Positions 6,232 to 42,921 of a stretch of 55,915 bases of DNA are shown here, one piece after another; within the stretch, counting starts at the first letter, position 1, and the number at the start of each line of letters is the position of its first letter. A model generated the notes under the pieces. The model was not told the DNA's origin. It saw nothing but the letters and a program-made list of their open reading frames with translations, and made no database searches. Source of the stretch: an archaeon (GTDB lineage: Archaea; Nanobdellota; Nanobdellia; Pacearchaeales; GW2011-AR1); NCBI GenBank assembly GCA_018648095.1, contig JABGRV010000006.1:80559-136473 (forward strand). The letters are read 5' to 3'. Position numbers and translations under genes: made by a program.

Positions 6232-6465
6232 TTATTTGTAAAGCTCAAAATATTCCGTTAGCAAGTTACATGCAATCCATCTGTAACCTGTCTGGATGGG
6301 CATTGTTTTCAGATCATGTTCAATAACTTCCAGATTGTCATCTATTAATTTCCCAAAAAGTAATCTGTCCGCAACTCCTGGCTTAAACTCTAAGCTCCTA
6401 TCACGATAGTAATCCGACGCAATATCTGTCATTCTCTTAAGCAAGCTTCTTTTCAAATTTGCCAT
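6232..6465 (-). CDS. hypothetical small protein (77 aa), possibly a HEPN-like partner of the adjacent NTase
   Basis: ORF track. It lies immediately upstream (in the transcription direction) of the NTase-domain gene. No recognisable motif was found. Confidence 0.35.
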   Translation of the reverse strand: MANLKRSLLKRMTDIASDYYRDRSLEFKPGVADRLLFGKLIDDNLEVIEHDLKTMPIQTGYRWIACNLLTEYFELYK

Positions 6466-27735: not shown

Positions 27736-27878
27736 TATTGTTTTATATAAAACAATATTTATAAATCTTTATTATTCAATGCAATTAAATTTAGAAGCAA
27801 TCTTAGGGTAGATTTTTACGAATCAAGTAGAAAATAAATCCCAGTAATCCTTAAAAAGTAGTCCCCCATTTTAATGCT

Positions 27879-28211
27879 ATGACATTGTTAGAAGATATAT
27901 GGGCGAGAGTTGGGGGGAGGTACTATATTCAAAAATATACCGGCTTTGAACTAGTTTATAGAATCGTTGATTTTTTTGTATATGAACGGAATTCCGAAGA
28001 AGGTAAGGATCCGGGTTTAAGGTTCAAAGTGTCTACCCATGATGGAGAAACTGGTTCCCATATAGACAAACCTGTGCTTCATCCTATGGGACATATAGAT
28101 TCTTTTTCGGAAGTTCCTTTTGATGATTATCTCCCCTGGATGGTCGATCAAGTTCATGAGGAAGCAGTTAATGAAGAGAGACAGAAAACACTAAAAACAT
28201 CCCGCACTTAA
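27879..28211 (+). CDS. hypothetical protein (110 aa)
   Basis: ORF track. Confidence 0.35.
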   Translation: MTLLEDIWARVGGRYYIQKYTGFELVYRIVDFFVYERNSEEGKDPGLRFKVSTHDGETGSHIDKPVLHPMGHIDSFSEVPFDDYLPWMVDQVHEEAVNEERQKTLKTSRT

Positions 28212-28218
28212 TACCTCC

Positions 28219-28746
28219 ATGACTACAAAAAAACCCAAACCCACAACCCCAAAACGAATTCTAATCTTCGGAGCCTCCGGAACCGGGAAAAACTGGTTCG
28301 GAGAGAGACTTTCCAAAAAATCCCGCATTAAGTTCTACGATACCGACGACCTGGCCTGGATAAAAAGATTTACCGTTAGAAGAGATTACAAAGAAAAGTG
28401 CGACATGCTAAAGAAGATCTGCAAGAAAGATAAATGGATGATTGCAACAGGAGCAACCACATACGTCAGCTGCGCAGAAAAGCGAGCCGATTTAATCATC
28501 ATTCTCGAGGCAGGTTTCCTCCGTAAATCTTACAGAATCATCAAACGCCATTTCCAGAAGAACGCCAGCGGAGAAGAATATTCCCCCAGTAATCCGCTTA
28601 AGCTTGTCTACGCCAATTATTTAGATTATCGAAAGGGTGGAAAGGGTAGGATTTATTTTGACGGCCTTATGAAGAAATATCCTGGGAAGGTAAGGGTGTT
28701 TGGGCAGGGGGAGAAGAGGAGGTTTCTGGAGGCGTGGGGGAGATGA
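28219..28746 (+). CDS. P-loop NTPase (adenylate-kinase / topology-modulation-protein-like)
   Basis: Walker A ILIFGASGTGKNWFGERL near the N-terminus. Confidence 0.55.
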   Translation: MTTKKPKPTTPKRILIFGASGTGKNWFGERLSKKSRIKFYDTDDLAWIKRFTVRRDYKEKCDMLKKICKKDKWMIATGATTYVSCAEKRADLIIILEAGFLRKSYRIIKRHFQKNASGEEYSPSNPLKLVYANYLDYRKGGKGRIYFDGLMKKYPGKVRVFGQGEKRRFLEAWGR

Positions 28747-28817
28747 AGGTTAAGGTTTTTGGGGGAATACTTGTAATAGAAACATTTATATATAGCAATG
28801 TATAGTAATAATATACA

Positions 28818-29234
28818 ATGGCAGATAAAAAAGAAACCACACAGGTTAATTTCAGGATTGAAAAAGAATTATTAGATTGGATTGATGCCCATTCAAAAAA
28901 ATCCTATAGTGATCGAACAACATTGATTAAGAGATCTATCCACGAATTAAAAATTAGGGTAGAGAAAGAGGAATTGTTTACTCAAAAACAATTAATAATT
29001 GATAAAAAAAGAATTAAAATAGTCAATGATGAAATTAAAAAATTAGGGCCAATAAAACAATTAAATAAGAAAGAAAAGGAAAATCTTTTTGATTTGAGTG
29101 AAGAAAAGGAAATTTTAGAAGAGGCCATTATGCAACGAGAGACTGATGAGCATTCAAGAGAATATTGGGCAAATGAAATTAAAGAATTGGAAGAAGAAAG
29201 GAGGAAAAGAAGAGATAAATTCATCTCTTCGTAA
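28818..29234 (+). CDS. putative ribbon-helix-helix / coiled-coil DNA-binding protein
   Basis: The N-terminus VNFRIEKELLDWIDAHSKKSYSDRTTLIKRSIHELK resembles CopG/RHH. The C-terminal half is coiled-coil. Confidence 0.4.
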   Translation: MADKKETTQVNFRIEKELLDWIDAHSKKSYSDRTTLIKRSIHELKIRVEKEELFTQKQLIIDKKRIKIVNDEIKKLGPIKQLNKKEKENLFDLSEEKEILEEAIMQRETDEHSREYWANEIKELEEERRKRRDKFISS

Positions 29235-29273
29235 ATTATATTCGCTTTAGCGATTGGTTGTTTTACCATCCAT

Positions 29274-29304
29274 CCCGGCAGAAAAATCTGCCGGGTTTAT
29301 ATTT
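29274..29304 (+). terminator. GC-rich hairpin (CCCGGCAGA-AAAAA-TCTGCCGGG) followed by a T-rich run
   Basis: Perfect 9-bp stem with a 5-nt loop, then TTTATATTT. It lies between the RHH-like gene and the HNH gene. Confidence 0.5.
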
Positions 29305-29312
29305 AGGATAAA

Positions 29313-29534
29313 ATGGTTTATTTGAAAAAAAATAAAAAAGGGTATCCCCTTACAAGAAACGGAAAGTTGATGCACAGAAAGGTTGCCGAAAATAAAATTG
29401 GTAGACCTCTGAGAAAACACGAGGTTGTACATCATCAAGATGAAAATAAGAATAATTTTAGAAAAGATAATTTATCCGTTATGAGCCGGTCTTTTCACTC
29501 AAAATTACATGGGAAAATAAAAAGGAGAAAATAA
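29313..29534 (+). CDS. small HNH endonuclease
   Basis: HEVVHHQDENKNNFRKDNLSVMSRSFH is an H-N-H core. Confidence 0.6.
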   Translation: MVYLKKNKKGYPLTRNGKLMHRKVAENKIGRPLRKHEVVHHQDENKNNFRKDNLSVMSRSFHSKLHGKIKRRK

Positions 29535-29537
29535 AAA

Positions 29538-29792
29538 ATGAGTTATGAATCCGAAATAAAAAAATGTTCCCGGTGCTCAAGGAAATTGGAAGAGTCGGAA
29601 AGATTGATGACATTCCCTGGAGAAATTTATTGGGATGTTGATGCTAGGATGTATGGGGGAACAAGCAAAAAAGTTTGTGAAAAATGTTATAAAGAACTAT
29701 CTGGGGAAGGTCTTATATGTATAAAAGATGAAAAAGGAGATTGGGTCTATCCCGAAGAGATTGGGAAAAAAGATGAACAAAAAACAGATTAA
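29538..29792 (+). CDS. zinc-ribbon protein (CSRCSR...CEKCYKEL)
   Basis: Two CxxC pairs, 84 aa. Confidence 0.4.
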   Translation: MSYESEIKKCSRCSRKLEESERLMTFPGEIYWDVDARMYGGTSKKVCEKCYKELSGEGLICIKDEKGDWVYPEEIGKKDEQKTD

Positions 29793-30099
29793 AATAATAA
29801 CTGAAATTGAAAGTCTGTTGCCAAAAAGGATGGGGGCGTTTGTCGAAAAAGAGACGCAGTACCATACAGGCAGATATCAAAAGAGAAAACAGAATGCATT
29901 TGTTCACTGTTATGATAAAAACTTTAGTTCCTTCATATTTCTGTTTCCAGTTTTTTGGACCTATGGCCGAGAAAAACAAACAAGAATTCTTTTTCATGAA
30001 ATCGCACACCTTAGGCTCCACCATAGCAAGAAGAAAAATAATGAGGTCGAGGCAGATAAATTGGCAAAAAGGTGGATGGGTGAAATTTCTAAAAAATAA
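29773..30099 (+). CDS. small HExxH motif protein (FHEIAHLRLHH), putative metallopeptidase-like
   Basis: Track ORF 29728..30099 with the start moved to the internal Met. The motif resembles SprT/ImmA-type HEIAH, but this is weak. Confidence 0.35.
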   Translation: MNKKQIKIITEIESLLPKRMGAFVEKETQYHTGRYQKRKQNAFVHCYDKNFSSFIFLFPVFWTYGREKQTRILFHEIAHLRLHHSKKKNNEVEADKLAKRWMGEISKK

Positions 30100-30144
30100 T
30101 AAACATTCCCAAAATTTTATAAACCCGTATTACATACGTATTAC

Positions 30145-30477
30145 ATGGTAGAACTATCAAAAATTCAAAAACCTGAACCAAAAGACGTGATTATTACTGT
30201 CCGGACCACAAAAGAAAACAAAGAATGGATGGATAAGAATAATATTAGCCCGAGCCTATTCTTTGATGAGGCTATAATTGATTTAAAGGCAAAAATGAAG
30301 GGAAATATTAATCGGAAAAACTGTGTTGTTTGTGGAAAACCTACAAAAGAGATAAAAATGGGAATCGGAATGGAGACTTTTTCTTTTTGTTGTCAGAAAT
30401 GTATTAAGACTTATGTTGCCAACGACCCGAAAGGCGAAGGGCTGGAAGTAAGGGGAACGCGGATTTATGTTAAATGA
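30145..30477 (+). CDS. zinc-ribbon protein (CVVCGKP...CCQKC)
   Basis: ORF track, 110 aa. Confidence 0.4.
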   Translation: MVELSKIQKPEPKDVIITVRTTKENKEWMDKNNISPSLFFDEAIIDLKAKMKGNINRKNCVVCGKPTKEIKMGIGMETFSFCCQKCIKTYVANDPKGEGLEVRGTRIYVK

Positions 30478-30515
30478 TACAAAGCATTTATTAATAATAG
30501 TTATTTGTACATTAT

Positions 30516-30950
30516 ATGGGAATGTTTGACTTTAAGCCAGTGAAAATAAAGAAACCCAAAATTCCTTCTGCACGTAATGTATTGCCAAGAAAAAGAGATA
30601 TCCAACGAATGATTTCTAATAAGCGAATTAGGGAACCCGTTTCCGCAAAAATTAAAACAGCAGTTAAGAAAAGGGCTGGAAATAAATGTGAGGCCAAGGG
30701 ATGCAGGCATTCGACCTATTTAGATTTTCATCATAAAAATATGAAAAATGATGACAATCGGGTTCAGAATATTGTTTTACTATGTCCAATTCACCACAGG
30801 GAAGCCCATGACAAGAAAAAAGTTCTAAAAACAAAAGATTCCTTTGGGAATACGATAAATCATAAAGTGGTGAGCAAAGAAACTAAGAAACGGATTGTGA
30901 AAAAAAGGAAGAAGCAGAATCCATTTGGAATGGGGTTTGGAGGATTCTAA
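30516..30950 (+). CDS. HNH endonuclease
   Basis: CEAKGCRHSTYLDFHHKNMKNDDNRVQNIVLLCPIHHREAH is the HNH core with Zn-binding Cys. Confidence 0.6.
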   Translation: MGMFDFKPVKIKKPKIPSARNVLPRKRDIQRMISNKRIREPVSAKIKTAVKKRAGNKCEAKGCRHSTYLDFHHKNMKNDDNRVQNIVLLCPIHHREAHDKKKVLKTKDSFGNTINHKVVSKETKKRIVKKRKKQNPFGMGFGGF

Positions 30951-30969: not shown

Positions 30970-32484
30970 ATGGCAAATAAACTACTAACAAAATCAAATT
31001 ATCTCCTCGGCCTACAATGCCCAAAACTACTCTGGGTCACTAAGAACAACAAAGAAAGAATTCCAGAGCCAGACTATTCTGCAAAACATAATTTTGAGAT
31101 GGGAGACATTATCGGAGTTCTTGCAACAAAGGTTTTCCCAAAAGGCATAGATTTAGCTAACTTAGATTTCAAAGAGAATATAGAAAAAACTAAGGAAGCC
31201 ATTAAAAGCAGAAAGACCATTTACGAGGCAGGAATTCTAACCGACGACGTATACTCTCGGGCAGACATCCTACTCCCTGTAGGAGAAGATGAATGGGACA
31301 TTATAGAAGTCAAAAATGCCACAAAAGTAAAAGATGTGAATATTCACGATGTTTCATTTCAAAAGCATGTTTATGAAAAAGCGGGACTAAAGATTAGAAA
31401 GTGTTTTTTGATGCACATTAATAACGAATATATCAAAGATGGGGAGATCGAGCCAGAAGAATTATTCATTCAAACAGAAATTAATGATAAGGTAGAAGAA
31501 TATTCCGAAGGAATAGAAGAAAGAATCCAAGAGATGCACAAGATTATCAATTCCAAGAAAGAACCTTCCTGTAAGATCGGAGTTTCATGCAGCGATCCTT
31601 ACGAATGTTCGTTAAAATGTGAATGCTGGAAAGATGTACCAAAAGACAGCGTATTTGATTTTTACAGGATGTTTAAGAAAAAATGTTTTGAATTATACGA
31701 TGGAGGAATTGTCTGCTTAAGTGATGTTCCAGAGAGTACAAAATTGAATGATAAACAACAGATACAGAGAAGATTAGCTTGTGAGGCGGCGTCCCCTAAG
31801 GACATGACACATGAAGGGCCTAAACATATAGATAAAACAGAGATAAATAATTTCCTTAGAAATTTGAAGTATCCGCTTTACTACCTAGATTTTGAAACAA
31901 TTAATCCTGCTATCCCTAAGTTTGATGGAATGAAGCCATATCAAAGAATCCCCTTCCAATTCTCCCTACATATTCAGAAAGAAGAAGGCGGAGAATGCGA
32001 GCATATCTCTTTCCTTGCAGAAGGCACAAGCGACTCAAGACCCAAGTTTATGCAAACCCTAAAAGACAATTTGGGAGACTCTGGGAGCATTTTAGTTTAT
32101 AATCAAGGGTTTGAGAAGGGCGTTATGAAAGAGGGCTGTGAGGCGTTGCCAGAATTTAAGGGATGGTATGGTGATAATATTGAGCCTAGAATCAAGGATC
32201 TTTTAGATGTTTTCAGAAATTTCCATTATTATGATCCGAAGCAATGCGGAAGTGCTTCGATAAAAAAGGTTTTGCCTTGTTTGACTAATTTGAAATATGA
32301 TGATTTGGAGATTGGAGAGGGGATGTTTGCAAGTTTAGAGTATGAACGGGTTACGTTTGGGGATGTTGATGATGCAGAGAGAAAGAAGGTTAGGGATGCG
32401 TTGGAAAAGTATTGTGAGTTGGATACGTTGGCAGAGGTTGAGATTGTGAAAGAATTGTTGGGGGTTGTTGACGATGGGGACTGA
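30970..32484 (+). CDS. Cas4/RecB-like PD-(D/E)xK nuclease domain protein with a Cys cluster (DUF2779-like architecture)
   Basis: D...E-V-K arrangement (DEWDIIEVKNATK) plus a four-plus Cys cluster CKIGVSCSDPYECSLKCECW. There is a large uncharacterised C-terminal domain. Confidence 0.45.
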   Translation: MANKLLTKSNYLLGLQCPKLLWVTKNNKERIPEPDYSAKHNFEMGDIIGVLATKVFPKGIDLANLDFKENIEKTKEAIKSRKTIYEAGILTDDVYSRADILLPVGEDEWDIIEVKNATKVKDVNIHDVSFQKHVYEKAGLKIRKCFLMHINNEYIKDGEIEPEELFIQTEINDKVEEYSEGIEERIQEMHKIINSKKEPSCKIGVSCSDPYECSLKCECWKDVPKDSVFDFYRMFKKKCFELYDGGIVCLSDVPESTKLNDKQQIQRRLACEAASPKDMTHEGPKHIDKTEINNFLRNLKYPLYYLDFETINPAIPKFDGMKPYQRIPFQFSLHIQKEEGGECEHISFLAEGTSDSRPKFMQTLKDNLGDSGSILVYNQGFEKGVMKEGCEALPEFKGWYGDNIEPRIKDLLDVFRNFHYYDPKQCGSASIKKVLPCLTNLKYDDLEIGEGMFASLEYERVTFGDVDDAERKKVRDALEKYCELDTLAEVEIVKELLGVVDDGD

Positions 32485-32601
32485 AGTGGTGGATGAGATT
32501 GATGGAGGGGTTGTGGAGAAGCTAAAAAGACCAGGGTATGACAAATAATAGTATTTATAAATCTGAGAATATTCAAATTATTGGAATGGGTGATTTAAAT
32601 A

Positions 32602-33666
32602 ATGTCAAAAGATAAACCGTATACAGTGGCTTCCTTTTTTAGTGGTTGTGGTGGTTTTGATCACGGTTTTGAGAAAAATGATTTCTCAGTTTTATTTGGG
32701 AATGATTCGTGGGAGGATGCTGCTACGACATTTAGGGCAAATTATCCGCAAGTTAAATTTTTTGAGAAACCAATTCAAGACATTACTGAAGAAGAATTAG
32801 CAGAGGTTACTAATAACATGCAAGTTGATGTATTAATTGGGGGGCCCCCTTGCCAGTGTTTCACGAGATTAAATAATAATCATCTGATTAAGTTATCTGA
32901 ACTAAAAAAAGAAGACAATAGAAGAACGCTGTCTCAAGAGTATATTAAAAAGGTTAAACTTCTAAAACCAAAGATAGTGTTGATGGAAAATGTAAGGGAC
33001 CTTCTACATAGGAAAAATCAGGAGGGGAAATTATATTCTGAAATAATTCGGGAGGCATTCAAGGAAATTGGATATGAAACTTACTGTAAAATTATCTCCA
33101 TGGATAAGTATGATGTTCCTCAAAAAAGAAAAAGAGTGATTTTTCTAGCCACTAATGTAAAAAGGTTAATGGAATTTCTTGATGAAAATGTTGATAATGG
33201 ATTCCCAAAGGAATCGAATAGGATAATCACTTCCGGAGAAGCCCTAGCTAAAATAAAAGATAATGAAAGTTTAAGTAACCACAATTTTACGATTAATGAA
33301 CCAGAAACTCTAGAGAAAATAAGGAATATCCCCCCAGGAGGTTATTACGAAGATTTACCAGACTCATTAAAAACAAAGAAAATTCGTAATGGGAAGGAAG
33401 TGATAGTAAAAAGATATGGCTCTTATTATCGGAGGTTACATCCGGATGAGCCTTCAAGAACAATAACAAATAATTACGTAATCCACCCAATCAAAGATAG
33501 ATATCTTTCAAATAGGGAAATGGCAATTTTACATAGCTTTCCAAAACAGTATAAATTTAAAGGAAACATGGGCTCAGTATCTCAACAAATTGCAAATGCT
33601 GTTCCGCCAAAATTTGCCGAAAAAATGGCAAAAAGAGTCCAATTTTTATTGGATAATTATTGTTAA
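32602..33666 (+). CDS. DNA (cytosine-5)-methyltransferase
   Basis: Motif I ASFFSGCGGFDHGF, motif IV GGPPCQCFT, motif VI ENV. Confidence 0.85.
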   Translation: MSKDKPYTVASFFSGCGGFDHGFEKNDFSVLFGNDSWEDAATTFRANYPQVKFFEKPIQDITEEELAEVTNNMQVDVLIGGPPCQCFTRLNNNHLIKLSELKKEDNRRTLSQEYIKKVKLLKPKIVLMENVRDLLHRKNQEGKLYSEIIREAFKEIGYETYCKIISMDKYDVPQKRKRVIFLATNVKRLMEFLDENVDNGFPKESNRIITSGEALAKIKDNESLSNHNFTINEPETLEKIRNIPPGGYYEDLPDSLKTKKIRNGKEVIVKRYGSYYRRLHPDEPSRTITNNYVIHPIKDRYLSNREMAILHSFPKQYKFKGNMGSVSQQIANAVPPKFAEKMAKRVQFLLDNYC

Positions 33667-33672
33667 CTTCAA

Positions 33673-34815
33673 ATGGTAGAAAAAAGTTACAAACTGGGAA
33701 AAGAATATATAGATAAGGGCAATCCCAAGTTTGATGAAGATCAATTCATGCGTTGGTTAAATATTAAGAATGTAAGTGGAATGATGAATTCTCCAGGAAT
33801 TCGGTGGTTAAATTATGCGAAGAAAAAAGATCTTCCTGCCGCAATAATATTAATTTCAAAAACTGCTAGCAGTTCATATCATAATCCTTGGGAGGATGTA
33901 ATCGATAGATTGGCAGGTAAGGCATATTACTGGGGGGATTCTAAATATGATCTAAAAAAATCTTGTGAAGACTTCATGGGAAATAAATTACTAAAAAAGG
34001 TCCACGTTAATCTTTTGGAGGGTAATCTTGATAAGATTCCGCCAATTTTACTTTTTTCAAAGCCAGTAAGTGGAAAAATCTTTTTTGAGGGATTGTGCGT
34101 GTTAGAAAATCTTGAAAGAACTTGGTTTGAGGATAAGGGTAAACCTGTTAGAAATTATCGTGCAATACTCCGGATATTGGATACTGAAAAGGTAAAAATT
34201 GAGTGGATACATAACAGAATATATGAAAAAGAATCCGATTCTCCAAGTGCTTGGAAGGACTATTCTTCTGGAAAAACACCCAAATATCTGAAGGTATGGA
34301 ATAAACGATTAAGATCCAAAAATGAACAATTACCTCCAATTAATTCCAATGATGATTTAATTCTAAAGAGAATAAATAGTTTATTATCCCGGGAGTTTGA
34401 GTTTTTTACAGTAAGACTTCTGGAATCTATAAAAGATATAAAGCATGAAATTGTAACTACTCGGGCAGTAAGGGATAAGGGGTTTGATTTCTTTGGGAGA
34501 TTTACATTGCCATACCCCCTAAAATATGAAATAAATTTTAAAGGAGAAGCTAAAAAGTTTGCAAGGTCTAGCGGAGTTGGACCTAAGGAATTATCTCGTT
34601 TAGCAGCAAAACTAACTCGTGGAGAATATGGGATATTCATCACCACATCGTATTATACATTACAAGCGCAGGAAGAATTATTTGAAGATGATTATCCAAT
34701 TAAGTTAATTAGCGGCAACGATATTATTAATTTTTTAAAAGAGTCAAGAATGATAAAGAATAATGCCCTATCTGAAAAAGATCTTTTTAAATTTTTGAAC
34801 CTTAAGCAAGAATGA
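33673..34815 (+). CDS. restriction endonuclease with an Mrr-type catalytic domain (cognate REase candidate)
   Basis: The C-terminus ...DKGFDFFGRF...GEAKKF...EYGIFITTSYYTLQAQEEL resembles the Mrr_cat fold. It lies 7 nt downstream of the C5-methyltransferase. Confidence 0.55.
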   Translation: MVEKSYKLGKEYIDKGNPKFDEDQFMRWLNIKNVSGMMNSPGIRWLNYAKKKDLPAAIILISKTASSSYHNPWEDVIDRLAGKAYYWGDSKYDLKKSCEDFMGNKLLKKVHVNLLEGNLDKIPPILLFSKPVSGKIFFEGLCVLENLERTWFEDKGKPVRNYRAILRILDTEKVKIEWIHNRIYEKESDSPSAWKDYSSGKTPKYLKVWNKRLRSKNEQLPPINSNDDLILKRINSLLSREFEFFTVRLLESIKDIKHEIVTTRAVRDKGFDFFGRFTLPYPLKYEINFKGEAKKFARSSGVGPKELSRLAAKLTRGEYGIFITTSYYTLQAQEELFEDDYPIKLISGNDIINFLKESRMIKNNALSEKDLFKFLNLKQE

Positions 34816-34858
34816 TCACACAGTTAACTATAAATATGGCCATATTTATTACCTGATA

Positions 34859-35599
34859 ATGGAAGACTATGTAGATTTTGAAGATATATTTAAGAATTTA
34901 ATAAATACTCACAAAAAAGACGAAGATTTTGAGTTAATCAAAGACTATCCTGCAATTTTTTCTTTAATTTCAAATATTTCTAGTGATAAGAGTGCGGATG
35001 GGATCACAAAAATGCTTATGAATAGTGCTATTTCATATTTTATCCTTCCAGAAGATATTATTTCTGAGAAAGAGTATGGGGTAAAGGGTTATGTTGATGA
35101 TTTTTTTATTTGCTTACATGTCTTATCGGAATTCTTAAAATATGATTCTAAACTTGGAGAATATTTAATAAATAAATATTGGACCTTAAAAGAGGATTAT
35201 CACAATTATATCTCTAATAAGTATTATGAACTCATGAAGTTAATCGAGGACTCTGTAAGATCTAATATCTTGTTACATTCGGGTGTAAAATATATTGAAG
35301 AACTCATTATGAATAAAAAAAATCCAAGAAAATACCTTGAATTAAAGGGAAGAGATTTACAAAGAAAGATACATTATTTATTTTTCTTATTTCTTAATAG
35401 GCCTATTGGAAATAAAGAGGCAAAGAAGGAATTTGAAAAAAATTTCTTTGGAACTTCAGAGTTCATGGAATTTTCAAAGAAATTGGATCTACTTGAAAAA
35501 GAAGATAATTCTTTTAGTAGGGCTAAAAAAAATGTGGATGAAATGTTTAGTTTAGAAGAAAATATGAAAAATATAAGAATTAGGAGACTTCTTGGATGA
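34859..35599 (+). CDS. DUF1232 (YkvA-like) domain protein
   Basis: YFILPEDIISEKEYGVKGYVDDFFICLHV matches the DUF1232 pattern. Its stop overlaps the next start. Confidence 0.4.
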   Translation: MEDYVDFEDIFKNLINTHKKDEDFELIKDYPAIFSLISNISSDKSADGITKMLMNSAISYFILPEDIISEKEYGVKGYVDDFFICLHVLSEFLKYDSKLGEYLINKYWTLKEDYHNYISNKYYELMKLIEDSVRSNILLHSGVKYIEELIMNKKNPRKYLELKGRDLQRKIHYLFFLFLNRPIGNKEAKKEFEKNFFGTSEFMEFSKKLDLLEKEDNSFSRAKKNVDEMFSLEENMKNIRIRRLLG

Positions 35600-37623
35600 C
35601 TGGTTTAAAAGAATTATCTGATTCAATAGAGAAAATTTATGATTCCGATTCTGAAGACATAACTGAAATAATGAATCTTCTTTTGAAACAATCTATTAGA
35701 TATAGTAGGATCGGAAGCTATTTTTCTTCAAAATCTTTTATTTCATTAGCGGAGGGGTTGGAAGAACTCTTCTTAAAAAACGGAAAGATGAAGTTGATTA
35801 TTAATTATGAATTAAGTAAGGAAGACCATCAGGAGCTAAAGAAGACTTGTGACTACCAGAAAATTGGAGATAGAATAGCATTAGATATTAAAAATCTGAA
35901 ATCTGAAATGGAGTTAAATTCCGCTAAAGTTTTAGCATGGTTAATCTATCAGGGGAAACTTGAGATAAAGGTTGTTCTTGGAAAAGGCAATAACTTAATG
36001 CATATCAAACAAGGGATATTTGAAGATGAATATGGTGACAAAGTGGCATTTACTGGATCTGCAAATGAAACATATTCTGCCTATGAAAAAAATATTGAAC
36101 AAGTAACTTTTTTCAAAGACTGGATAAGTGGGCAGGAGGAATATGTAGGGGAGTTTATTTCCAAATTTAACAAGTTTTGGGATAATTGTGGGGTTGTGGC
36201 TAAAACTTATTCTTTATCAAAAGCTTTTGAGAACGAATTAATGAGAATTCGGCCAAGGACCGAGGCAGAATTAAAAGAATCCCTTCAAATTATTTCTTCC
36301 AAGAATATGTCCACTAAGAAGAAAAAATCACTCACTCCCTATCCCCATCAAGATGCCGCATTACAAGCGTGGTTGAAAAATGACAAGAGGGGCATAATTG
36401 AAATGCCTACTGGTTGTGGAAAGACCAAAACTGCCCTATTTGCTTTTAGAAAAGCTATAAAATCTGGAAAGAGCGCTACTTTTATCTTTGCTCCAACAAA
36501 GGCCATTTGTAATCAATGGATAGAGGAATTTGAAGGAGAACCTTGCAAAATTTGCAAAATTTATGATAATCCAAATTGGAAAAGAGATTTAAAGAAAAAT
36601 ATTTTGGATTTAAAACTGGGAGTATTTGAGAATCTTGTTGTAGTCGGAAGCTATGCACTAATAACTTCCAAAGTTCTTATCGAAGAAATTAGAACTTTGA
36701 CAGAATTTAACAAGTTTTTAATTGCAGATGAAGCTCATTCTACCGGGGCACTGAAGACCTCCGGGGGTTTAATAGAAGATTATAATTTTCGCCTGGCCTT
36801 AAGCGCTACTCCCAAAAGATATCTTGATGAGGACGGAACAAATAGAGTTTTTGATTTTTTTGGAGGGGTAGTTTATGACAAAATAGGATTATATGAGGCA
36901 ATTTATTCCTTGGGGGTGCTTTGTGAGTATGAGTATCATTTAATTCAAGTTTTTTTAAATGAAGAAGAAATGGCCCAATATTCCAAGCTGACAAAATTAT
37001 TAATTATGAAGGTTTCTATGAAATCGAAAGATAAGTACAATACAAATCTTGACTCAGAAATTCAAAGGCTTGCAGAAAAAAGGGCAAAGATTATAAAAAA
37101 TTGCTCTGCTAAACTAGACAAGCTTCCAGAGATAGTAGAAGAAATTAAAGAAGATAAGTCTATTATTTTCGTTTCTCCGAAACAACGGGAGGAGGTATTG
37201 AAGATAGTCAGAAATAGAATAAAATACCACCAATATACTTATTCTGAGGATACGGAAGTAAGATCTAGGGCCCTTGAAAATTTTAAAGAAGGAAAAATAC
37301 AGGCCTTAGTTGCAATAAAATGTCTTGATGAAGGTTTAGATGTGCCTGCTGCAAGGGCAGGAGTTATTATGGCAAGTTCTGGAAATCCCCGGGAGTTTAT
37401 TCAAAGGAGGGGCAGGCTTTTAAGAAAACATCCCAATAAAAAATATGCAAAGATTTTTGATTTTTTTGTAACTCCCTCTAAGGAGGCTATTAGCTCTTCG
37501 GAGATGTATAAAAATCAGATATCCAAAGAATTAAAAAGAATAACCGAGTTTGCAAAATCTGCTAGAAATGAAATAAAGGTATCGAAAGAATTAAAAGAGT
37601 TAAAATCTAAATTAGGCCTATGA
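35596..37623 (+). CDS. PLD-family (HKD) nuclease fused to an SF2 DEAH helicase
   Basis: HKD-type motif HIKQGIFEDEYGDKVAFTGSANET. Helicase motifs MPTGCGKT (I), IADEAHS (II), LSATP (III), QRRGRLLR (VI). Confidence 0.7.
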   Translation: MTGLKELSDSIEKIYDSDSEDITEIMNLLLKQSIRYSRIGSYFSSKSFISLAEGLEELFLKNGKMKLIINYELSKEDHQELKKTCDYQKIGDRIALDIKNLKSEMELNSAKVLAWLIYQGKLEIKVVLGKGNNLMHIKQGIFEDEYGDKVAFTGSANETYSAYEKNIEQVTFFKDWISGQEEYVGEFISKFNKFWDNCGVVAKTYSLSKAFENELMRIRPRTEAELKESLQIISSKNMSTKKKKSLTPYPHQDAALQAWLKNDKRGIIEMPTGCGKTKTALFAFRKAIKSGKSATFIFAPTKAICNQWIEEFEGEPCKICKIYDNPNWKRDLKKNILDLKLGVFENLVVVGSYALITSKVLIEEIRTLTEFNKFLIADEAHSTGALKTSGGLIEDYNFRLALSATPKRYLDEDGTNRVFDFFGGVVYDKIGLYEAIYSLGVLCEYEYHLIQVFLNEEEMAQYSKLTKLLIMKVSMKSKDKYNTNLDSEIQRLAEKRAKIIKNCSAKLDKLPEIVEEIKEDKSIIFVSPKQREEVLKIVRNRIKYHQYTYSEDTEVRSRALENFKEGKIQALVAIKCLDEGLDVPAARAGVIMASSGNPREFIQRRGRLLRKHPNKKYAKIFDFFVTPSKEAISSSEMYKNQISKELKRITEFAKSARNEIKVSKELKELKSKLGL

Positions 37624-37790
37624 ACGAGTTAAAAAAATTAGTAAATAAGGCGGTTCTTGAAAAAATACCCCTTTCAGAAGATCGGGAGGCACTTTTAGAA
37701 GCAATAAGTATTGAAGAAACTTTTGGTGGGTTAAAATCTACAGATCTATTAGATAAATATGAAAAAATTATAGAGGGACTTATAAAATGA
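37620..37790 (+). CDS. unannotated 56-aa ORF translationally coupled on both sides (MNELKKLVNKAVLEKIPLSEDREALLEA...)
   Basis: ATGA overlaps at both ends: 37620-37623 with the helicase stop and 37787-37790 with the ATPase start. Confidence 0.35.
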   Translation: MNELKKLVNKAVLEKIPLSEDREALLEAISIEETFGGLKSTDLLDKYEKIIEGLIK

Positions 37791-39781
37791 AGTTAAACAA
37801 AATTATAATTGAGAATTATCGGGGCTATTATGGTAAAAATGAGATCGAGTTTAATAATGGAGAAAAGGGAAAACATATAGATTTGATAATAGCACGTAAT
37901 GATACCGGAAAAACTACTTTTTTAAACGCTATCTATTGGTGTCTTTATGGTAAGGAACAATTCTATAATTCAAAAAATAGCAATCAAAGAGTTATGTCCA
38001 ATAAAAAGATTATTGAGACTCCAATTGGAGAAAAATTGAATTTTTCAGTCACACTAGTATTTAGTGATGATAAGGGTCCAAAGGTGGAGATAACTCGTCA
38101 GCGGATATTTAAGAGGGCCAGGGATGAAGATAACGATCTAAAAATTATTCAGGATGGAGAAGATAGATTTTTTGGAATGGAAATTAATAAGAAAGGAACG
38201 GGTTTTGAAAAGATTAATTACCTTGAGAACTTCATATCTTCCCAAATTCCTGAAGGGATAAGCCCTTTCTTTCTTTTAGATGGTGAACAGCTCAAAGCAA
38301 TATTTACTTCCGATATTAATTATAAAATAAAAGATGCCATTGAAAAAGTAGCTAACATAAAATCGATAAATGGTCTAATCGAAAATTTATCACGCTTAGA
38401 TCGCAATTATTCTAGTATGAAATCAGGTATAGATCCGAATTATGGGGCCATACAGGCAAGGATAGATAAGGCAGATGCCACCATCACAAAGACTAAGGCC
38501 GATTTAGAAGAATGGATGAAAGAAAAAGAATCATTAAAGAAACAAATCTCTGAACTTGATGATTATCTCCAGAACCACAATGAGACAGTAGTGAGGGAAC
38601 TAGGAGCAAGGGAACAAAATTTAAGGGGAACTATAGGGCGGGCAGATGAGGATCGTAAGGAATCCGAGGAAAAATTGAATAATATGGTAATCAAGGCCTA
38701 TATTCTAAAAATTGGGAAAAAGAGCCTTTTAGAAACAAGCGATAAGTTTAATGAGATCATTGAGGGGGGGAATTTTCCTCCTGCGGTAGATCCCTCACAT
38801 GTATTACAACTTATTAAGAGGAGAGAATGTATCTGTGGTACAAAAATATCAAAAAATTCTGAAGAAGAAGAAAAACTTAAGAAACTCGCAGATACCAAGA
38901 GTTTTAAAGAATATGTTAGAATAATCTCCCAAGGAGATGCCCAGCTCCCACAGATGATTGAATCTATAAAATCCCTTGTGGGCGATATATCGGTAGAAAG
39001 AAAGAAAGTGTATGGGCATGAGGCACTAATTAAAGATAGTAAAAAGGAGATAGATGAAATTACCTTAAAGTTAAAATCCTCCGACGTGGAAGAAATCCGT
39101 AATAAGGGAGAAGAAAAAGAAATGTTGGAAAGAGAAATTACTCGTAAGGAGGGAGATATCCATCGCGCAGAGGGAGATTTAGATGTTTTAAATATTTCTA
39201 AAAAAGATGATGCCTCTAAATTGAATAGCATAAAGATAAAAGAACTTAAAGATAAACTTCTCATCCAAAAATCAGAAAAATGTAAACAACTTATAACTTA
39301 CTCTAAGGAAATAAAAGAATCAATAATGAAAACTATAAAGGATAAAATAGAAGAATCTACTGCCAAAAACTTCGTAGATCTTCATTGGAAGGCAGAGGAT
39401 TATGAAAAGGTAAGTATCTTAGATGATTTTTCTCTTTCGGTAAGAGATAAATATCGTGGAGAGTTAATCAATGAACTTTCCCAGGGTGCAGCATTATGTT
39501 TTGGTCTTGCTTTTATGACCGCACTTAGGAATTATTCAGGATATGATGTCCCAGTAATAATCGATTCTCCGGTGGGAAAAATAGATGAGGGAAATAGAGA
39601 AAAGATTGCAAAGAGTTTACCTGAACAATTAAAGGGAAAGCAAGTAATCTTCTTAGTTACTAGCTCCGAATACACCTCAGTATTTAAGAAATTTCTTGAC
39701 GACAAAATTTCGACAAAAATTTCGTTAACTTATAATAAAAAAACTGGAGAAATAGACATAGACAATAATGGCAGCGATTGA
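37787..39781 (+). CDS. SMC-like ABC ATPase (AAA_23/DndD/SbcC-like)
   Basis: N-terminal Walker A ARNDTGKTTFLNAIYWCLYG. A long coiled-coil middle follows. C-terminal signature LSQGAALCFGLAF and D-loop VPVIIDSPVGKIDEGN. Confidence 0.7.
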   Translation: MKLNKIIIENYRGYYGKNEIEFNNGEKGKHIDLIIARNDTGKTTFLNAIYWCLYGKEQFYNSKNSNQRVMSNKKIIETPIGEKLNFSVTLVFSDDKGPKVEITRQRIFKRARDEDNDLKIIQDGEDRFFGMEINKKGTGFEKINYLENFISSQIPEGISPFFLLDGEQLKAIFTSDINYKIKDAIEKVANIKSINGLIENLSRLDRNYSSMKSGIDPNYGAIQARIDKADATITKTKADLEEWMKEKESLKKQISELDDYLQNHNETVVRELGAREQNLRGTIGRADEDRKESEEKLNNMVIKAYILKIGKKSLLETSDKFNEIIEGGNFPPAVDPSHVLQLIKRRECICGTKISKNSEEEEKLKKLADTKSFKEYVRIISQGDAQLPQMIESIKSLVGDISVERKKVYGHEALIKDSKKEIDEITLKLKSSDVEEIRNKGEEKEMLEREITRKEGDIHRAEGDLDVLNISKKDDASKLNSIKIKELKDKLLIQKSEKCKQLITYSKEIKESIMKTIKDKIEESTAKNFVDLHWKAEDYEKVSILDDFSLSVRDKYRGELINELSQGAALCFGLAFMTALRNYSGYDVPVIIDSPVGKIDEGNREKIAKSLPEQLKGKQVIFLVTSSEYTSVFKKFLDDKISTKISLTYNKKTGEIDIDNNGSD

Positions 39782-40181
39782 TGAATTCATAAGCAAATTA
39801 AATTATCTAAATATAGATAAAAAAAACAGAGAGATTTATAATAAGTTGAAAAGTTCTAGTATCTTTAAGGGAACTCGGGGAAATCCGGATCTTTTTTTAC
39901 TGAGTCTCGTTATTGGATTAAAGCATGGAAAAAGGAAAAAACTTCTTAATGGAGGAAATCTTTTTAGAATTAGTGAGCTCCAAGAAGATATTTGGACTCT
40001 TTTATCCATTGGTTTTTCAGAGTTAAAGGATATTGAAGTTTTTGAGACAAAGGAAGGTGCAAAAATGGCATTGAAAGTTTGCGAAGAATATGCTAACTCT
40101 GGAATAGAAATTCTTAATGATTTAGCAAAAAAGCCCTCGGAGTTTATTAATCATTTAATTGAAGAATTGTTAAAGAAATAA
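39768..40181 (+). CDS. hypothetical 137-aa protein, last gene of the five-gene operon
   Basis: It overlaps the ATPase stop by 14 nt. Confidence 0.4.
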   Translation: MAAIDEFISKLNYLNIDKKNREIYNKLKSSSIFKGTRGNPDLFLLSLVIGLKHGKRKKLLNGGNLFRISELQEDIWTLLSIGFSELKDIEVFETKEGAKMALKVCEEYANSGIEILNDLAKKPSEFINHLIEELLKK

Positions 40182-40337
40182 GAGTAAGGAATACTCCAGA
40201 GTTGTTGCGGGATTTGATAAAAAGAGGTAATACCGCTCGGGAGAGAATAGTTGAAAATTTAGGGTATGGAAAGTTCTAGGAAGAGGTAGTTACACATAAA
40301 ACAATCCATCAACCTCTCCATCCCCGACCAGCCTCTC

Positions 40338-40550
40338 TTAACCACTAATCCCTGCAGAAGCCTCCCGTAACCCACTCCCCCACCAATCATAAACTGTACC
40401 AACACTACTTCCACCACCATAACTACAACTATGAATTCCAGACCACCAACTATAATCTGCTGAACAGGCAGTAAAAACCCATATTGCCAACAAAATCACG
40501 ACGAGAAATGCTATCACAAAATATATGATCCAAAATGTACTACTTTTCAT
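40338..40550 (-). CDS. small membrane protein (70 aa)
   Basis: TM segment WIIYFVIAFLVVILLAIWVF, then a G/S/W-rich tail. Confidence 0.35.
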   Translation of the reverse strand: MKSSTFWIIYFVIAFLVVILLAIWVFTACSADYSWWSGIHSCSYGGGSSVGTVYDWWGSGLREASAGISG

Positions 40551-40554
40551 ATCT

Positions 40555-40640
40555 ATTTTAGGTACCTAGTCTATATAAACCTTTTGGTACCTAAGTCTTA
40601 ACTATATAATAGTATAGGTACCAAACTTTAAATATCTCCT
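40555..40640 (+). promoter_or_regulatory. triple GGTACC-plus-TATA-like repeat module upstream of the AbrB-like gene
   Basis: GGTACC at 40562, 40587 and 40618. Each is followed by TATATAA-like text. Confidence 0.35.
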
Positions 40641-40655
40641 AATCTTAATCAAATC

Positions 40656-40817
40656 ATGAAGATCCAGAAGCATTTGGGAAGAAAAATTGGCGATAAAATC
40701 TACTACAAGTACGTCGTAGTCATTCCAGACGAGATTTTAGAGGAATCTGGATTAAAAGCCGGCGATGAATTAGTGGCAGAAGCAGGAAAGAAGGAATTGA
40801 AGTTAAAGAAGAAATGA
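40656..40817 (+). CDS. unannotated 53-aa AbrB/SpoVT/MazE-like swapped-hairpin protein
   Basis: Manual translation MKIQKHLGRKIGDKIYYKYVVVIPDEILEESGLKAGDELVAEAGKKELKLKKK. The pattern (I/V)P.EI.E..GLK.GDEL is characteristic. Confidence 0.5.
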   Translation: MKIQKHLGRKIGDKIYYKYVVVIPDEILEESGLKAGDELVAEAGKKELKLKKK

Positions 40818-41044
40818 ACCTTACAATAGATAGCAGTGAGGGGGTTTAGCTATTTATTATCTTTCATTCTTAAACCACATAAGAAAAACACCAAATAAAA
40901 CAATTATTAATCCTGCCCAGAAGGAGGAGGTCGTTGAAAGCATAAAAACTCCAACAAAAATTAAGATAAGGCCAAAAATTTTAAGTATAAAATGGATTAG
41001 TTGATTCATAAAATAATTACTCAAATCAACTTTAAAAATTTAAC

Positions 41045-41329
41045 TCATCCACATAAATCTTCACAAGGGACACCATCACCATCACCATCCAACCAATGAA
41101 CATCATCCTTACAAGCAGTATAGATATTCATCGCTTCAAAACAGGAATCAAACTCCGCACAATCGTACATATCTACTGAGCAATTGGTATTACTATTATC
41201 ATTTTCAACATAACTCGTAAATAAAACAATCTGATAAGCCATAAAAACGAGAAAAAGAAGAATTAAAGTTGTTAATATTGGATGACTTCGGATCCATTCA
41301 ATCAAATTCCCTTTTCTTACCCCGTGCAA
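41045..41329 (-). CDS. small TM protein with a Cys/Asp-rich ectodomain (94 aa)
   Basis: ORF track. TM LTTLILLFLVFMAYQIVLF. Confidence 0.35.
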   Translation of the reverse strand: MHGVRKGNLIEWIRSHPILTTLILLFLVFMAYQIVLFTSYVENDNSNTNCSVDMYDCAEFDSCFEAMNIYTACKDDVHWLDGDGDGVPCEDLCG

Positions 41330-41356
41330 TTCCTTATGTTTTTCACGAGTAACTAT

Positions 41357-41578
41357 CTACAAATTATCAATTCGATTATTCAACTTATCTCCATCAATGT
41401 GGTGAATATTATATTCTGAGAAAGGCAATGGATATTTTTCCCTATTGGAATGATAAATGCCCTTCTCGGCAATTGTTTTGTGAACATATTTACCAGAATC
41501 TTTCCAAGCGTAATATCCATTCTTTTTGTAAACTTTCTTTATGAAATCTCTTTGTTTTTGGGTTGTTTCTTTATTCAT
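41357..41578 (-). CDS. small HNH-like protein (73 aa)
   Basis: YNIHHIDGDKLNNRIDNL is an HNH core. Confidence 0.4.
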   Translation of the reverse strand: MNKETTQKQRDFIKKVYKKNGYYAWKDSGKYVHKTIAEKGIYHSNREKYPLPFSEYNIHHIDGDKLNNRIDNL

Positions 41579-42018
41579 TTGAATTTTCCTTCTTTCATTT
41601 CTAAGAGAAATTTTTGAGTTAATAAATTAAGACTACTTTCAACTCCATCAACATCAACTCCCAAATCTAATTTATAAATTCCCTTTATATAACTCCCAAT
41701 AGCAAATATCCTCATTTTAGTTTTTTTTATTAGTCTTAATCTCCGCCATGTAGGAATTGCCCATATCATAGTTATTAATGCTCCCGAAATAATAATGGCT
41801 ATTGGATTTCCTTCAGTCCCCCCATATACAAATAATAAAATTGGTAAAAGAATGGCAATAAAAATCGATGAAGAAGTTAATAGTTTAGAAACCGCAATTT
41901 CGATATTTGCTTTTTGATATTCTGCCTTGTTTTTAAGAAACTCAATTTGTCTTAACGCTTCTTTCTCTGGCAGTTTCTCAAATATATTTCTATCTTTTTT
42001 CATAGAAGAACTATCCAA
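41575..42018 (-). CDS. membrane protein (147 aa)
   Basis: Two TM segments. Its stop overlaps the downstream start. Confidence 0.4.
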   Translation of the reverse strand: MDSSSMKKDRNIFEKLPEKEALRQIEFLKNKAEYQKANIEIAVSKLLTSSSIFIAILLPILLFVYGGTEGNPIAIIISGALITMIWAIPTWRRLRLIKKTKMRIFAIGSYIKGIYKLDLGVDVDGVESSLNLLTQKFLLEMKEGKFK

Positions 42019-42096: not shown

Positions 42097-42921
42097 ATGA
42101 ACACAAACACCCCAACATCCCCAAATCCCCTAAACACAAACACCCCAACATCCCCAAATCCCCTAAACACAAACACCCCAACATCCCCAAAATCATCCCG
42201 CACAAACAACCCCTTAAACAAAAAAGAACGGGAAAACATCTTCGAGATATTCATAAAAAACAAAAAGATGAAGTTCACCGAGATCGAGAAGATGCTCGAC
42301 ATCAGATCTAACCTTCTGAATTATCATCTTAAGATAATGATTGAGGAAGGCTTGCTAGGAAAAGAAGAAGAAATGTACTGCCTTACGAAAGAAGGAGAGA
42401 AAATCATCCCATTCTATGCTCATTTGACAAACAAAGAGAAAGGTTCCCTAGTTATTTGTGCAGTTGCAATAAGACGTAGGGGAGAAATTTGCCTTCTAAA
42501 AAGAAACAAGAGACCTTATCAAGGATATTGGGGAATGATTGGAGGAAAAGTACGCCTAGAAGAATCAATTGAAGAAACTGCCGTTAGAGAAGCCCTTGAA
42601 GAAACAGGCCTAACATGCAAATTCAAGAAAGTAGCCTCAGTACTGCACGAAAGAGTCAAGGATTCTGGGACAGTTAAGCACAGTTTCATCATTTTTCTCT
42701 GCGAAGTCGAAGCAGAAACTGATGATTTAGTCGAAACTGAGGAAGGAGAAGTAAAATGGTTCCCAATAAACACCCTCCCAGAAAACATTATTCCCTCAGA
42801 TAGACTAATGATCGAAAAACTCCTCAAAACAAGAAAGTCAAATATAGGAAAAGTTATGATTGAAGAGGTAGAAGACGAACTAAAAAACTTGGAGTATGAA
42901 GAATATGGCAAAAGACTCTAA
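42097..42921 (+). CDS. winged-HTH (ArsR-like) plus NUDIX hydrolase fusion, with an N-terminal T/P/N-rich tandem repeat
   Basis: wHTH FTEIEKMLDIRSNLLNYHLKIMIEEGLL. Nudix box GGKVRLEESIEETAVREALEETGL. Confidence 0.65.
   Translation: MNTNTPTSPNPLNTNTPTSPNPLNTNTPTSPKSSRTNNPLNKKERENIFEIFIKNKKMKFTEIEKMLDIRSNLLNYHLKIMIEEGLLGKEEEMYCLTKEGEKIIPFYAHLTNKEKGSLVICAVAIRRRGEICLLKRNKRPYQGYWGMIGGKVRLEESIEETAVREALEETGLTCKFKKVASVLHERVKDSGTVKHSFIIFLCEVEAETDDLVETEEGEVKWFPINTLPENIIPSDRLMIEKLLKTRKSNIGKVMIEEVEDELKNLEYEEYGKRL
42100..42198 (+). repeat. 33-bp tandem repeat x3 (AACACAAACACCCCAACATCCCCAAATCCCCTA), coding NTNTPTSPNPL x3
   Basis: Copies 1 and 2 are identical and copy 3 is degenerate. The repeat lies at the 5' end of the wHTH-NUDIX ORF. 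Confidence 0.8.

Follow-up and report, generated by a model that had tools for sequence, protein, structure and literature searches.

A DPANN archaeal defence island with a probable cytosine-methylation-linked Pbe variant at its core

The stretch of DNA considered here, 55,915 nucleotides (nt) from an archaeon of the Pacearchaeales (assembly GCA_018648095.1, contig JABGRV010000006.1), is called the window below, and this 56-kb window is all of the genome that was in view. Between positions 30970 and 40181 it holds eight plus-strand open reading frames (ORFs), at exactly the coordinates given by an initial annotation made from the sequence. We read them as a composite DPANN defence island whose core is a cytosine-methylation-linked variant of Pbe, the CxC ABC-ATPase/DndE system, and we hold this reading, with the mechanism proposed for it, to be rather probable. 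It is built on direct observations, namely the identities of the components, the structure of the operon, the conserved catalytic motifs and, across related loci, the linkage to a C5-cytosine methylase, to Vsr and to a DUF1232-like gene.

The initial annotation had proposed a defence island in an archaeal host, with an operon at its centre, and this much of it stands: one operon encoding an HKD-nuclease/superfamily 2 (SF2) helicase and a coiled-coil ABC ATPase lies alongside a Cas4-like nuclease and a C5 methylase, and the nearest relatives are found in metagenome-assembled genomes (MAGs) of Nanoarchaeota, Woesearchaeota and Pacearchaeota. Its Pfam-type domain calls also hold (DUF2779, DNA_methylase, Mrr_cat, DUF1232, PLDc_2 with ResIII and Helicase_C, and AAA_23). 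The two further elements of its overall reading, an undescribed system and a type II restriction-modification (R-M) pair, have to be given up. PbeABCD has been known since 2019, the TIGRFAM models are older, and the pairing with a methylase had already been predicted, so that the call of a new system is corrected here. The methylase-linked, DUF1232-containing form found in DPANN archaea appears to be a variant of this known system, one that the literature has sketched computationally. GenBank files the window's proteins under an '[archaeon]' MAG as helicase, hypothetical, methyltransferase and DUF2779 protein only, and public annotation gives none of them the name Pbe ('DEAD/DEAH box helicase family protein' or hypothetical). 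The GC content of the window is 36%.

The Pbe operon and its place among known systems

Five overlapping genes, all on the plus strand, make up the operon: a DUF1232-like gene (34859-35599), pbeA (35596-37623), pbeB (37620-37790), pbeC (37787-39781) and pbeD (39768-40181). Read directly, every junction from 34859 to 40181 overlaps, as had been claimed. The DUF1232-like gene and pbeA share an ATGA (4 nt), the pbeA/pbeB and pbeB/pbeC overlaps are also of 4 nt, and pbeC and pbeD overlap by 14 nt. These overlaps are not a product of chance, since the same order, with overlapping or near-abutting junctions, is found again in over 15 independent loci, in which PbeA identity falls as low as 27-38%. 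Gene order and overlaps together agree with the earlier proposal of a single operon, in which A-B-C-D would be transcribed as one unit. A 43-nt spacer (34816-34858, plus strand) sets the five genes off from the nuclease gene upstream and holds the element TATAAATA some 25-30 nt 5' of the DUF1232-like start codon, a candidate archaeal promoter of the operon.

PbeA (675 residues) joins a single-HKD nuclease domain of the phospholipase D (PLD) family to a DEAH SF2 helicase. The PADLOC PbeA model matches residues 10-664 at 2.2e-189, Pfam finds PLDc_2, ResIII and Helicase_C, and TIGR04095 (dnd_restrict_1) scores 379 bits, under its equivalog cut-off. Residues H136, K138, D144 and G154-S155-x-N157 are invariant in the 11 PbeA sequences that we compared, which come from DPANN archaea, gammaproteobacteria and one Dnd-linked bacterium; the helicase has its Walker A from residue 271, DEAH at 378 and QRRGR at 603. 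Database matches and motifs thus agree with the fusion of a single-HKD PLD nuclease and a DEAH helicase first described.

PbeB, an acidic protein of 56 residues, is encoded between pbeA and pbeC by an ORF that overlaps both neighbours, and an ORF of 53-68 residues occupies the same place in all loci. The protein aligns at 54-66% identity inside the DPANN clade and weakly to bacterial PbeB. No hidden Markov model matched it in Pfam or, at E up to 10, in PADLOC, which has no PbeB model.

PbeC (664 residues) is a DndD-like coiled-coil ABC ATPase with a CxC motif (Zn hook) at the apex of its coil. The PADLOC PbeC model matches it over its full length at 1.6e-90, ahead of DndD at 4e-45. The DndD model TIGR03185 gives 149.4 bits against a curated cut-off of 245.85, which places PbeC outside DndD proper and is consistent with membership of a sister CxC clade. 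The coil midpoint carries E347-C348-I349-C350-G351, invariant in 8 archaeal and bacterial sequences, and the ATPase motifs are a Walker A at 38-43, the signature LSQGAA at 564 and a DndD-type Walker B, IIDSP, at 591. A length of 664 residues leaves about 350-400 for the coil, which has the CxC Zn hook and no SMC hinge. Of the label 'SMC/DndD/SbcC-type' originally attached to this ATPase, only the DndD part is retained, because the protein belongs to the DndD/CxC clade.

PbeD (137 residues) is a DndE-fold protein of the dnd_assoc_4 family. It matches TIGR04062 (dnd_assoc_4) under the NCBIfam equivalog cut-off, PF27807 (DNA_S_mod_dnd_assoc_4) is a precomputed Pfam match, and a fold search found the DndE fold, which makes the protein a DndE cognate. 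Alignment of the PbeD profile with one DndE sequence by hhalign gave no signal, PADLOC at E up to 10 returned a chance Cas4a1 match only, and searching PDB sequences with PbeD, the DUF1232-like protein and the DUF2779 protein brought up nothing or marginal matches. We presume PbeD to be the DNA-binding partner of PbeC.

These genes answer to pbeABCD as defined in haloarchaea, where they encode a PLD-helicase PbeA, a 66-residue PbeB, an ABC ATPase PbeC and a 152-residue PbeD, all four of them essential (Xiong 2019, PMC6459918). The Aravind lab equates PbeABCD with the CxC ABC-ATPase/DndE-anchored system and assigns the roles of HKD-SF2 helicase to PbeA, small fast-evolving protein to PbeB, CxC Zn-hook ATPase to PbeC and DndE cognate to PbeD (PMC10853773). 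Because each defining feature was found when looked for (the HKD site, the ECICG motif, the small ORF), we assign the five-gene operon as PbeABCD plus one added 5' gene. An undescribed system is at odds with the full-length PADLOC matches of PbeA and PbeC, the NCBIfam dnd models, the DndE fold and a literature description that corresponds gene for gene. The initial annotation had also set the operon apart from the Dnd-type systems, and it belongs among their relatives.

The DndCDEA-PbeABCD locus of Haloterrigena jeotgali (PMC6459918) shares the four genes and their order, likewise in an overlapping operon, and its type, like that of the window, is known from both archaeal and bacterial hosts, from islands as well as plasmids. 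Unlike it, the window has no dndCDEA nearby, and its linked modification enzyme is a C5 methylase, usually accompanied by Vsr in the relatives; it also has a coupled DUF1232-like gene 5' of pbeA, a PD-(D/E)XK gene and a DPANN host, and it scores under NCBIfam equivalog cut-offs that were built on Dnd-linked members. DndFGH, SspE and other phosphorothioate-sensing modules follow the same logic, in which a modification is combined with a nucleoside triphosphatase/nuclease effector that spares marked DNA, with unrelated proteins. Both Xiong 2019 (PMC6459918) and the Aravind lab (PMC10853773) had already noted a methylase-linked form of Pbe.

Genes linked to the cassette: C5 methylase, Vsr and a DUF1232-like gene

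The C5-cytosine DNA methyltransferase (32602-33666, plus strand) is the presumed self-marking component of the island. It matches Pfam DNA_methylase at 1.5e-58, PADLOC MTase_II at 2e-86 and TIGR00675 (dcm) over the cut-off, and its motifs FSGCGG, GGPPCQ, ENV, QKRKR and NAVPP are intact. Its relatives in the PDB gave no specificity assignment.

For comparison, we called ORFs in all fetched loci (numbered with an L below) and mapped the eight window proteins, Vsr, PDDEXK and DndC/D/E by phmmer, together with precomputed gene tables. The close DPANN clade comprises 12 distinct architectures with PbeA 62-70% identical to that of the window. The DUF1232-like gene lies directly 5' of pbeA in every one of them, and all 11 that have enough flank also hold a C5 methylase no more than about 2 kb away. 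The methylase stands upstream on the same strand in the window, L004 and L017, upstream and divergent in the JGI 3300072015 contig, and downstream on the opposite strand in the remainder. The arrangement extends well beyond this clade: the four distant full-length DUF1232-like relatives that we looked up (P0097, P0100, P0103 and P0130) all lie directly 5' of a PbeA-small ORF-PbeC-PbeD cassette, with PbeA 27-38% and PbeC 24-29% identical to the window proteins. Three of these four cassettes adjoin a C5 methylase of a larger type (536-589 residues), and the fourth contig stops just past pbeD. Wherever the flank is long enough (14 of 14 related architectures), a C5 methylase thus adjoins the cassette, despite changing position and orientation, and its slot is filled by non-orthologous enzymes of either 340-360 or 536-589 residues. 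In eight distinct loci (L004, L005, L009, L014/L021, L015/L024, L017, L022 and L023), Vsr follows pbeD directly, at gaps of 1-50 nt, which implies that there is real 5-methylcytosine (5mC) in those genomes.

In all, 16 distinct loci have the DUF1232-like gene directly 5' of pbeA, the most distant with a PbeA only 27-38% identical. Six Pbe loci, comprising three gammaproteobacterial loci, the Dnd-linked L016, a Halococcus plasmid and a Leuconostoc plasmid, have neither this gene nor a C5-methylase homologue in their flanks. This distribution makes the DUF1232-like gene a marker of a cytosine-methylase-linked subtype of Pbe. The genes found 5' of bacterial pbeA (a helix-turn-helix gene, a metallophosphatase and another ABC ATPase) are unrelated to it.

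The ORFs of the window include no phosphoadenosine-phosphosulfate (PAPS)-reductase DndC, no DndA, no DndE-type gene and no second DndD beyond Pbe, and PADLOC gave no matches to DndF/G/H or Ssp. The remote bacterial L016 served as a positive control and has PAPS-reductase DndC, DndD, DndE and a cysteine desulfurase beside PbeABCD. Such a Dnd-Pbe arrangement, the phosphorothioation-dependent form with dndCDEA adjacent, is found neither in the 56-kb window nor in any DPANN locus, where no dnd gene lies within about 10 kb of the cassette.

The product of the DUF1232-like gene, translationally coupled to pbeA, is a protein of 246 residues that is predicted from its sequence to be soluble and acidic and is modelled as all-helical (14 helices, predicted local distance difference test score 80). 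Its Pfam DUF1232 match is limited to a 36-residue motif at residues 50-85. A structure search with the predicted fold returned no meaningful relative, PADLOC gave no match at E up to 10, and a literature search found no link of DUF1232 to defence. The label 'YkvA membrane protein', which it bears in some sources, does not suit a soluble, acidic protein. An exhaustive HMMER search with the DUF1232-like profile returned three 50%-identity clusters in a tight clade, then a gap, then about 330 weaker matches from E~1e-22; the viral contigs scanned with the DUF1232 profile held no relatives, and there was no match on plasmids.

This protein may be the same as the published MTaX1; neither MTaX1 nor DUF1232 occurs in the supplement of PMC10853773 (2024). 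The methylase-containing CxC-DndE systems with MTaX1 (Krishnan et al. 2020), as far as PMC10853773 relays them, share with the window the CxC-DndE core, the HKD-SF2 helicase, a small protein and the C5 methylase, and also have an added conserved protein specific to methylase-linked forms. In that secondhand account, the text of PMC10853773 mentions no Vsr, Cas4-like/DUF2779 nuclease, DPANN host or AspBHI-like gene for the MTaX1 systems.

Other forms of the gene were seen as well. In L034, the DUF1232-like module forms part (about residues 227-428) of a 678-residue protein (125-2161) that has no Pfam domain besides it, and the PbeC homologue of this locus (4435-6450) lacks the mid-coil CxC motif. 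L012/L013 have PDDEXK_1, a 192-residue AAA_23 fragment, two unannotated ORFs and a truncated 210-residue DUF1232-like gene, with no PbeA; L028/L029 have the same truncated gene, and in L030 a truncated 206-residue gene stands beside an 86-residue methylase fragment. The loci L012/L013, L028/L029 and L030 look like decayed or rearranged versions.

The distribution of Pbe is patchy, and 47 plasmids carry the system. Several cassettes stand beside TraC/VirB4-like conjugation ATPases, tyrosine integrases or transposases (L032/L033, 8590-10094; L011, 3402-8114; L014, 1-186 and 18325-18765), which suggests integrated mobile elements as the vehicle of the cassette in DPANN-type genomes.

The upstream nucleases and the flanks

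Between the methylase and the Pbe operon, 6 nt behind the former, lies a gene (33673-34815, plus strand) for a 380-residue endonuclease of the 5mC-dependent AspBHI/MspJI family, in which an SRA-like reader is followed by a Mrr-type PD-(D/E)XK domain. Given the short spacer, the two genes are probably co-transcribed. The protein matches Pfam RE_AspBHI_N (1e-34) and Mrr_cat and PADLOC mREase_II (2e-47), and it aligns over its full length with AspBHI (PDB 4oc8; 2e-32, 115 bits) and MspJI (2e-16). Its pocket residues D75/Y86/D89 align with D71, Y82 and D85 of AspBHI, and its catalytic D272-X19-E292-A-K294 matches DX20EAK; in AspBHI, mutagenesis found both the 5mC pocket and the DX20EAK motif essential (PMC3946040). 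Since the domains, the full-length alignment and the essential AspBHI residues are all conserved, we predict an active 5mC-dependent (type IIM/IV) enzyme, which would not be the cognate nuclease of the methylase. It has the same two domains, D/Y/D pocket, D-X(19-20)-EAK motif and C5 methylase neighbour as MspJI and AspBHI (PMC2938202, PMC3946040), and differs from them in its low identity (the same 115 bits to AspBHI) and in being wedged between a methylase and a Pbe operon. Enzymes of the family cut in a 5mC-dependent way at a fixed distance (N12/N16), as tetramers. About half of MspJI-family genes adjoin C5 methylases, which was reported without explanation (Zheng et al. 2010, PMC2938202), and the MspJI locus itself holds Vsr, a methylase and a 'putative helicase' (PMC2938202).

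On either side of this gene, the window aligns collinearly (BLASTN, about 70% identity) with the Nanoarchaeota locus L004, which has a 63-nt spacer in place of the gene, a clean and exact indel. The AspBHI-like gene is lineage-specific, owing to either an insertion in the window or a loss in L004, and it occurs in none of the other loci fetched. The earlier description of a classical type II R-M pair does not survive these findings, given that the nuclease is methyl-directed, that L004 keeps the methylase without it and that no other locus has it. A 'Mrr-fold endonuclease', as it had been called, is right as to Mrr_cat and misses the N-terminal 5mC-reading domain. The only lineage with the AspBHI-like gene is also one without Vsr after pbeD.

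The first gene of the island (30970-32484, plus strand) encodes a Cas4-like PD-(D/E)XK nuclease of about 230 residues at the N-terminus joined to DUF2779 at residues 304-430, and ends 117 nt before the methylase gene. Pfam DUF2779 matches at 1e-38 and PADLOC Cas4 at 7.5e-7 over residues 15-221. The protein has C17, D99, E113-x-K115, Q131xxxY135 and the cysteines C201/C207/C213/C217/C219, and thus the four cysteines and PD-(D/E)XK core of the Cas4 family, with a predicted Fe-S cluster. No CRISPR repeat array was found in the window and no cas gene among the ORFs scanned, and for this reason we call the protein Cas4-like rather than Cas4, which leaves the initial call of a Cas4/RecB-like nuclease in place in that form.

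Orthologues of this DUF2779 protein adjoin the cassette in L004, L020 and the JGI 3300072015 contig, and other loci have unrelated PDDEXK_1 proteins at its place. A PD-(D/E)XK gene is present in most close-clade architectures, as a DUF2779 fusion of 489-504 residues or a form of 391-412 or 215-240 residues; comparison ruled out that these three kinds are orthologues, as they are mutually unrelated. We assign the Cas4-like protein as a putative accessory nuclease in the upstream nuclease slot of the island. Different loci fill this slot with different PD-(D/E)XK proteins, in keeping with the 'diverse nucleases' theme of PMC10853773.

Each flank of the island carries a small HNH_3 endonuclease gene, at 29313-29534 (plus strand) and 41357-41578 (minus strand), in a block of short unannotated ORFs (27879-30950, plus strand, and 40259-42018, minus strand). 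Inverted duplicated flanks bounding the island were ruled out, since long inverted repeats are missing and the HNH proteins share only 37% identity over 51 residues. A similar HNH_3 gene lies just 5' of a distant cassette in L035/L036. The element ATTTATAAATCT is common to positions 27740-27768 and 32536-32564, where it precedes the first small ORF of the left flank and the methylase gene, and the two copies are possibly related archaeal promoters. Just 3' of pbeD, a 53-residue ORF (40656-40817, plus strand) has a weak MazE-antitoxin Pfam match in L002 and L003, which are identical contigs, with no partner toxin identified. A perfect 33-nt tandem repeat of 2.8 copies, AACACAAACACCCCAACATCCCCAAATCCCCTA, occupies positions 42100-42198, at the 5' end of the longest ORF at 42097-42921, which encodes a protein with a winged helix-turn-helix and a NUDIX domain; since gene callers in identical contigs start this gene later (209 residues), the repeat is probably upstream or regulatory and not coding. 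Farther away, the window has a UPF0020/N6_N4-type methyltransferase (2220-3341, minus strand), a 637-residue protein with a nucleotidyltransferase domain (4267-6180, minus strand) and a 583-residue protein with a weak match to MutS domain V (9793-11544, plus strand).

Proposed mechanism, competing explanations and meaning

In the mechanism that we propose, 5mC laid down by the methylase would mark host DNA in place of phosphorothioation. The PbeC-PbeD pair would load on DNA and scan it and, on meeting unmarked foreign DNA, would license PbeA to translocate and to nick, cut or block replication. How PbeA acts is disputed, as the Aravind lab has it cleave (PMC10853773) and Xiong has it block replication without cleavage (PMC6459918). 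PbeB and the DUF1232-like protein would be regulator or adaptor subunits, the latter being the best candidate for a link between the machine and either the methylase or the methylation state. The AspBHI-like enzyme would cut DNA with 5mC or 5-hydroxymethylcytosine in contexts that the resident methylase does not make, so that invaders would be attacked either way, the unmodified by Pbe and the foreign-modified by the type IV enzyme.

Several points weigh against this. The mechanism of the methylase-linked form is drawn from sequence comparison, and the resident methylase is a presumed self-marking enzyme; M.MspJI, its counterpart at the analogous locus of MspJI, showed no activity in vitro (PMC2938202). 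PbeABCD gave no viral DNA cleavage in the only experimental study (PMC6459918). No Vsr gene or remnant was found by tblastn 3' of pbeD in the window (40182-41000). A role as reader is speculative for the DUF1232-like protein, which is acidic and shows no recognisable fold for binding DNA or a base. Lastly, dnd or ssp genes could lie outside the 56-kb window, and the proximity of the methylase could reflect the clustering of defence genes and not functional coupling.

We also put forward, tentatively and as a possibility only, a bolder version. In it, the DUF1232-like protein would be an obligatory fifth subunit that rewires Pbe from phosphorothioate to 5mC sensing, and DUF1232-PbeABCD with a C5 methylase, Vsr and a PD-(D/E)XK protein would constitute a distinct 5mC-based system, widespread in DPANN-type low-GC archaea. 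In the lineage of the window, this system would be joined at operon level to the MspJI-type enzyme, and one methylase would then serve both a methylation-protected and a methylation-targeting nuclease.

The clustering argument leads to the strongest competitor, in which the genes are independent neighbours: PbeABCD would be solitary, inactive or in need of dnd/ssp phosphorothioation encoded elsewhere, and the methylase, Vsr and the AspBHI-like enzyme would form a separate module. Xiong 2019 gives this as one of two options for 320 solitary PbeAC pairs (PMC6459918), MspJI-family enzymes by themselves are known to adjoin C5 methylases and Vsr (PMC2938202), the view is limited to 56 kb of the genome, and defence genes do cluster without functional links. 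The survey argues otherwise. A C5 methylase kept in 14 of 14 architectures, through inversion, a shift from upstream to downstream and non-orthologous replacement, would hardly be expected without selection for linkage; Vsr comes directly behind pbeD in eight loci, the DUF1232-like gene tracks the methylase-linked form exactly, and the archaeal loci have no dnd gene within about 10 kb. We consider independence unlikely, though a serious contender.

Less likely again, in our estimate, is the abortive infection proposed by the Aravind lab (PMC10853773), in which PbeB, and perhaps the DUF1232-like protein, would restrain the scanner and the HKD nuclease until a viral trigger turns the nuclease on host DNA and kills or arrests the cell, methylation being secondary or regulatory. 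An invariant HKD site together with the failure to observe cleavage of viral DNA (PMC6459918) fits this model, and so does PbeB, which is small and the least conserved component within the clade (54-66% identity against 64-95% for PbeD). On the other hand, the escape of phosphorothioate-modified virus from the characterised Pbe defence (PMC6459918) fits self/non-self marking better than suicide, and the constant presence of a modification enzyme, with Vsr, argues that marking matters. PbeB, moreover, is predicted to be helical and is conserved in length, unlike what we would expect of the disordered, fast-evolving bait of the abortive model.

That the island consists, as first annotated, of a type II R-M pair and an undescribed PLD-helicase/SMC-ATPase system is hardly credible any longer. 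The domain content is as described, and NCBI records do not name the system, but the PADLOC 2023 models for PbeA and PbeC, the TIGRFAM models dnd_restrict_1 and dnd_assoc_4, the DndE fold and the literature all identify it gene for gene, and the nuclease is a methyl-dependent enzyme of the AspBHI family, dispensable in relatives. Weakest of all, and scarcely conceivable, is housekeeping DNA repair by a Rad50/SbcC-like ATPase and a Hef/XPB-like helicase, of which Rad50 and a Hef-like helicase had been named in the initial annotation as a possible challenge to a defence role: the weak NCBIfam similarities behind it (Rad50 48 bits, XPB 53 bits, Hef 43 bits) lie far under curated cut-offs of 610-700 bits (Rad50 47.8 against 700; likewise SbcC 22 against 478 and Pfam SMC_N 24 against 40), PbeC has a DndD-type Walker B and a CxC hook, and the system is patchily spread, on 47 plasmids and beside integrases (L011), transposases (L014, L037 and L038) and conjugation genes (L032).

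With a cytosine-methylation-linked Pbe variant as the preferred reading, the locus means the following for DPANN archaea and for the families concerned. DPANN archaea with tiny genomes keep a multi-gene defence island of about 9 kb. The DUF1232-like gene and the C5 methylase accompany the Pbe cassette as a pair or are both missing (16 loci, 14 of them with flank, against six with neither), a rule that makes the hypothesis that methylation replaces phosphorothioation directly testable with one small cassette. The window also offers a natural case of a 5mC-dependent nuclease directly behind a C5 methylase, which bears on the unexplained association of MspJI-family genes with methylases; if the one-methylase/two-nuclease scheme is true, it could explain why these genes sit side by side.

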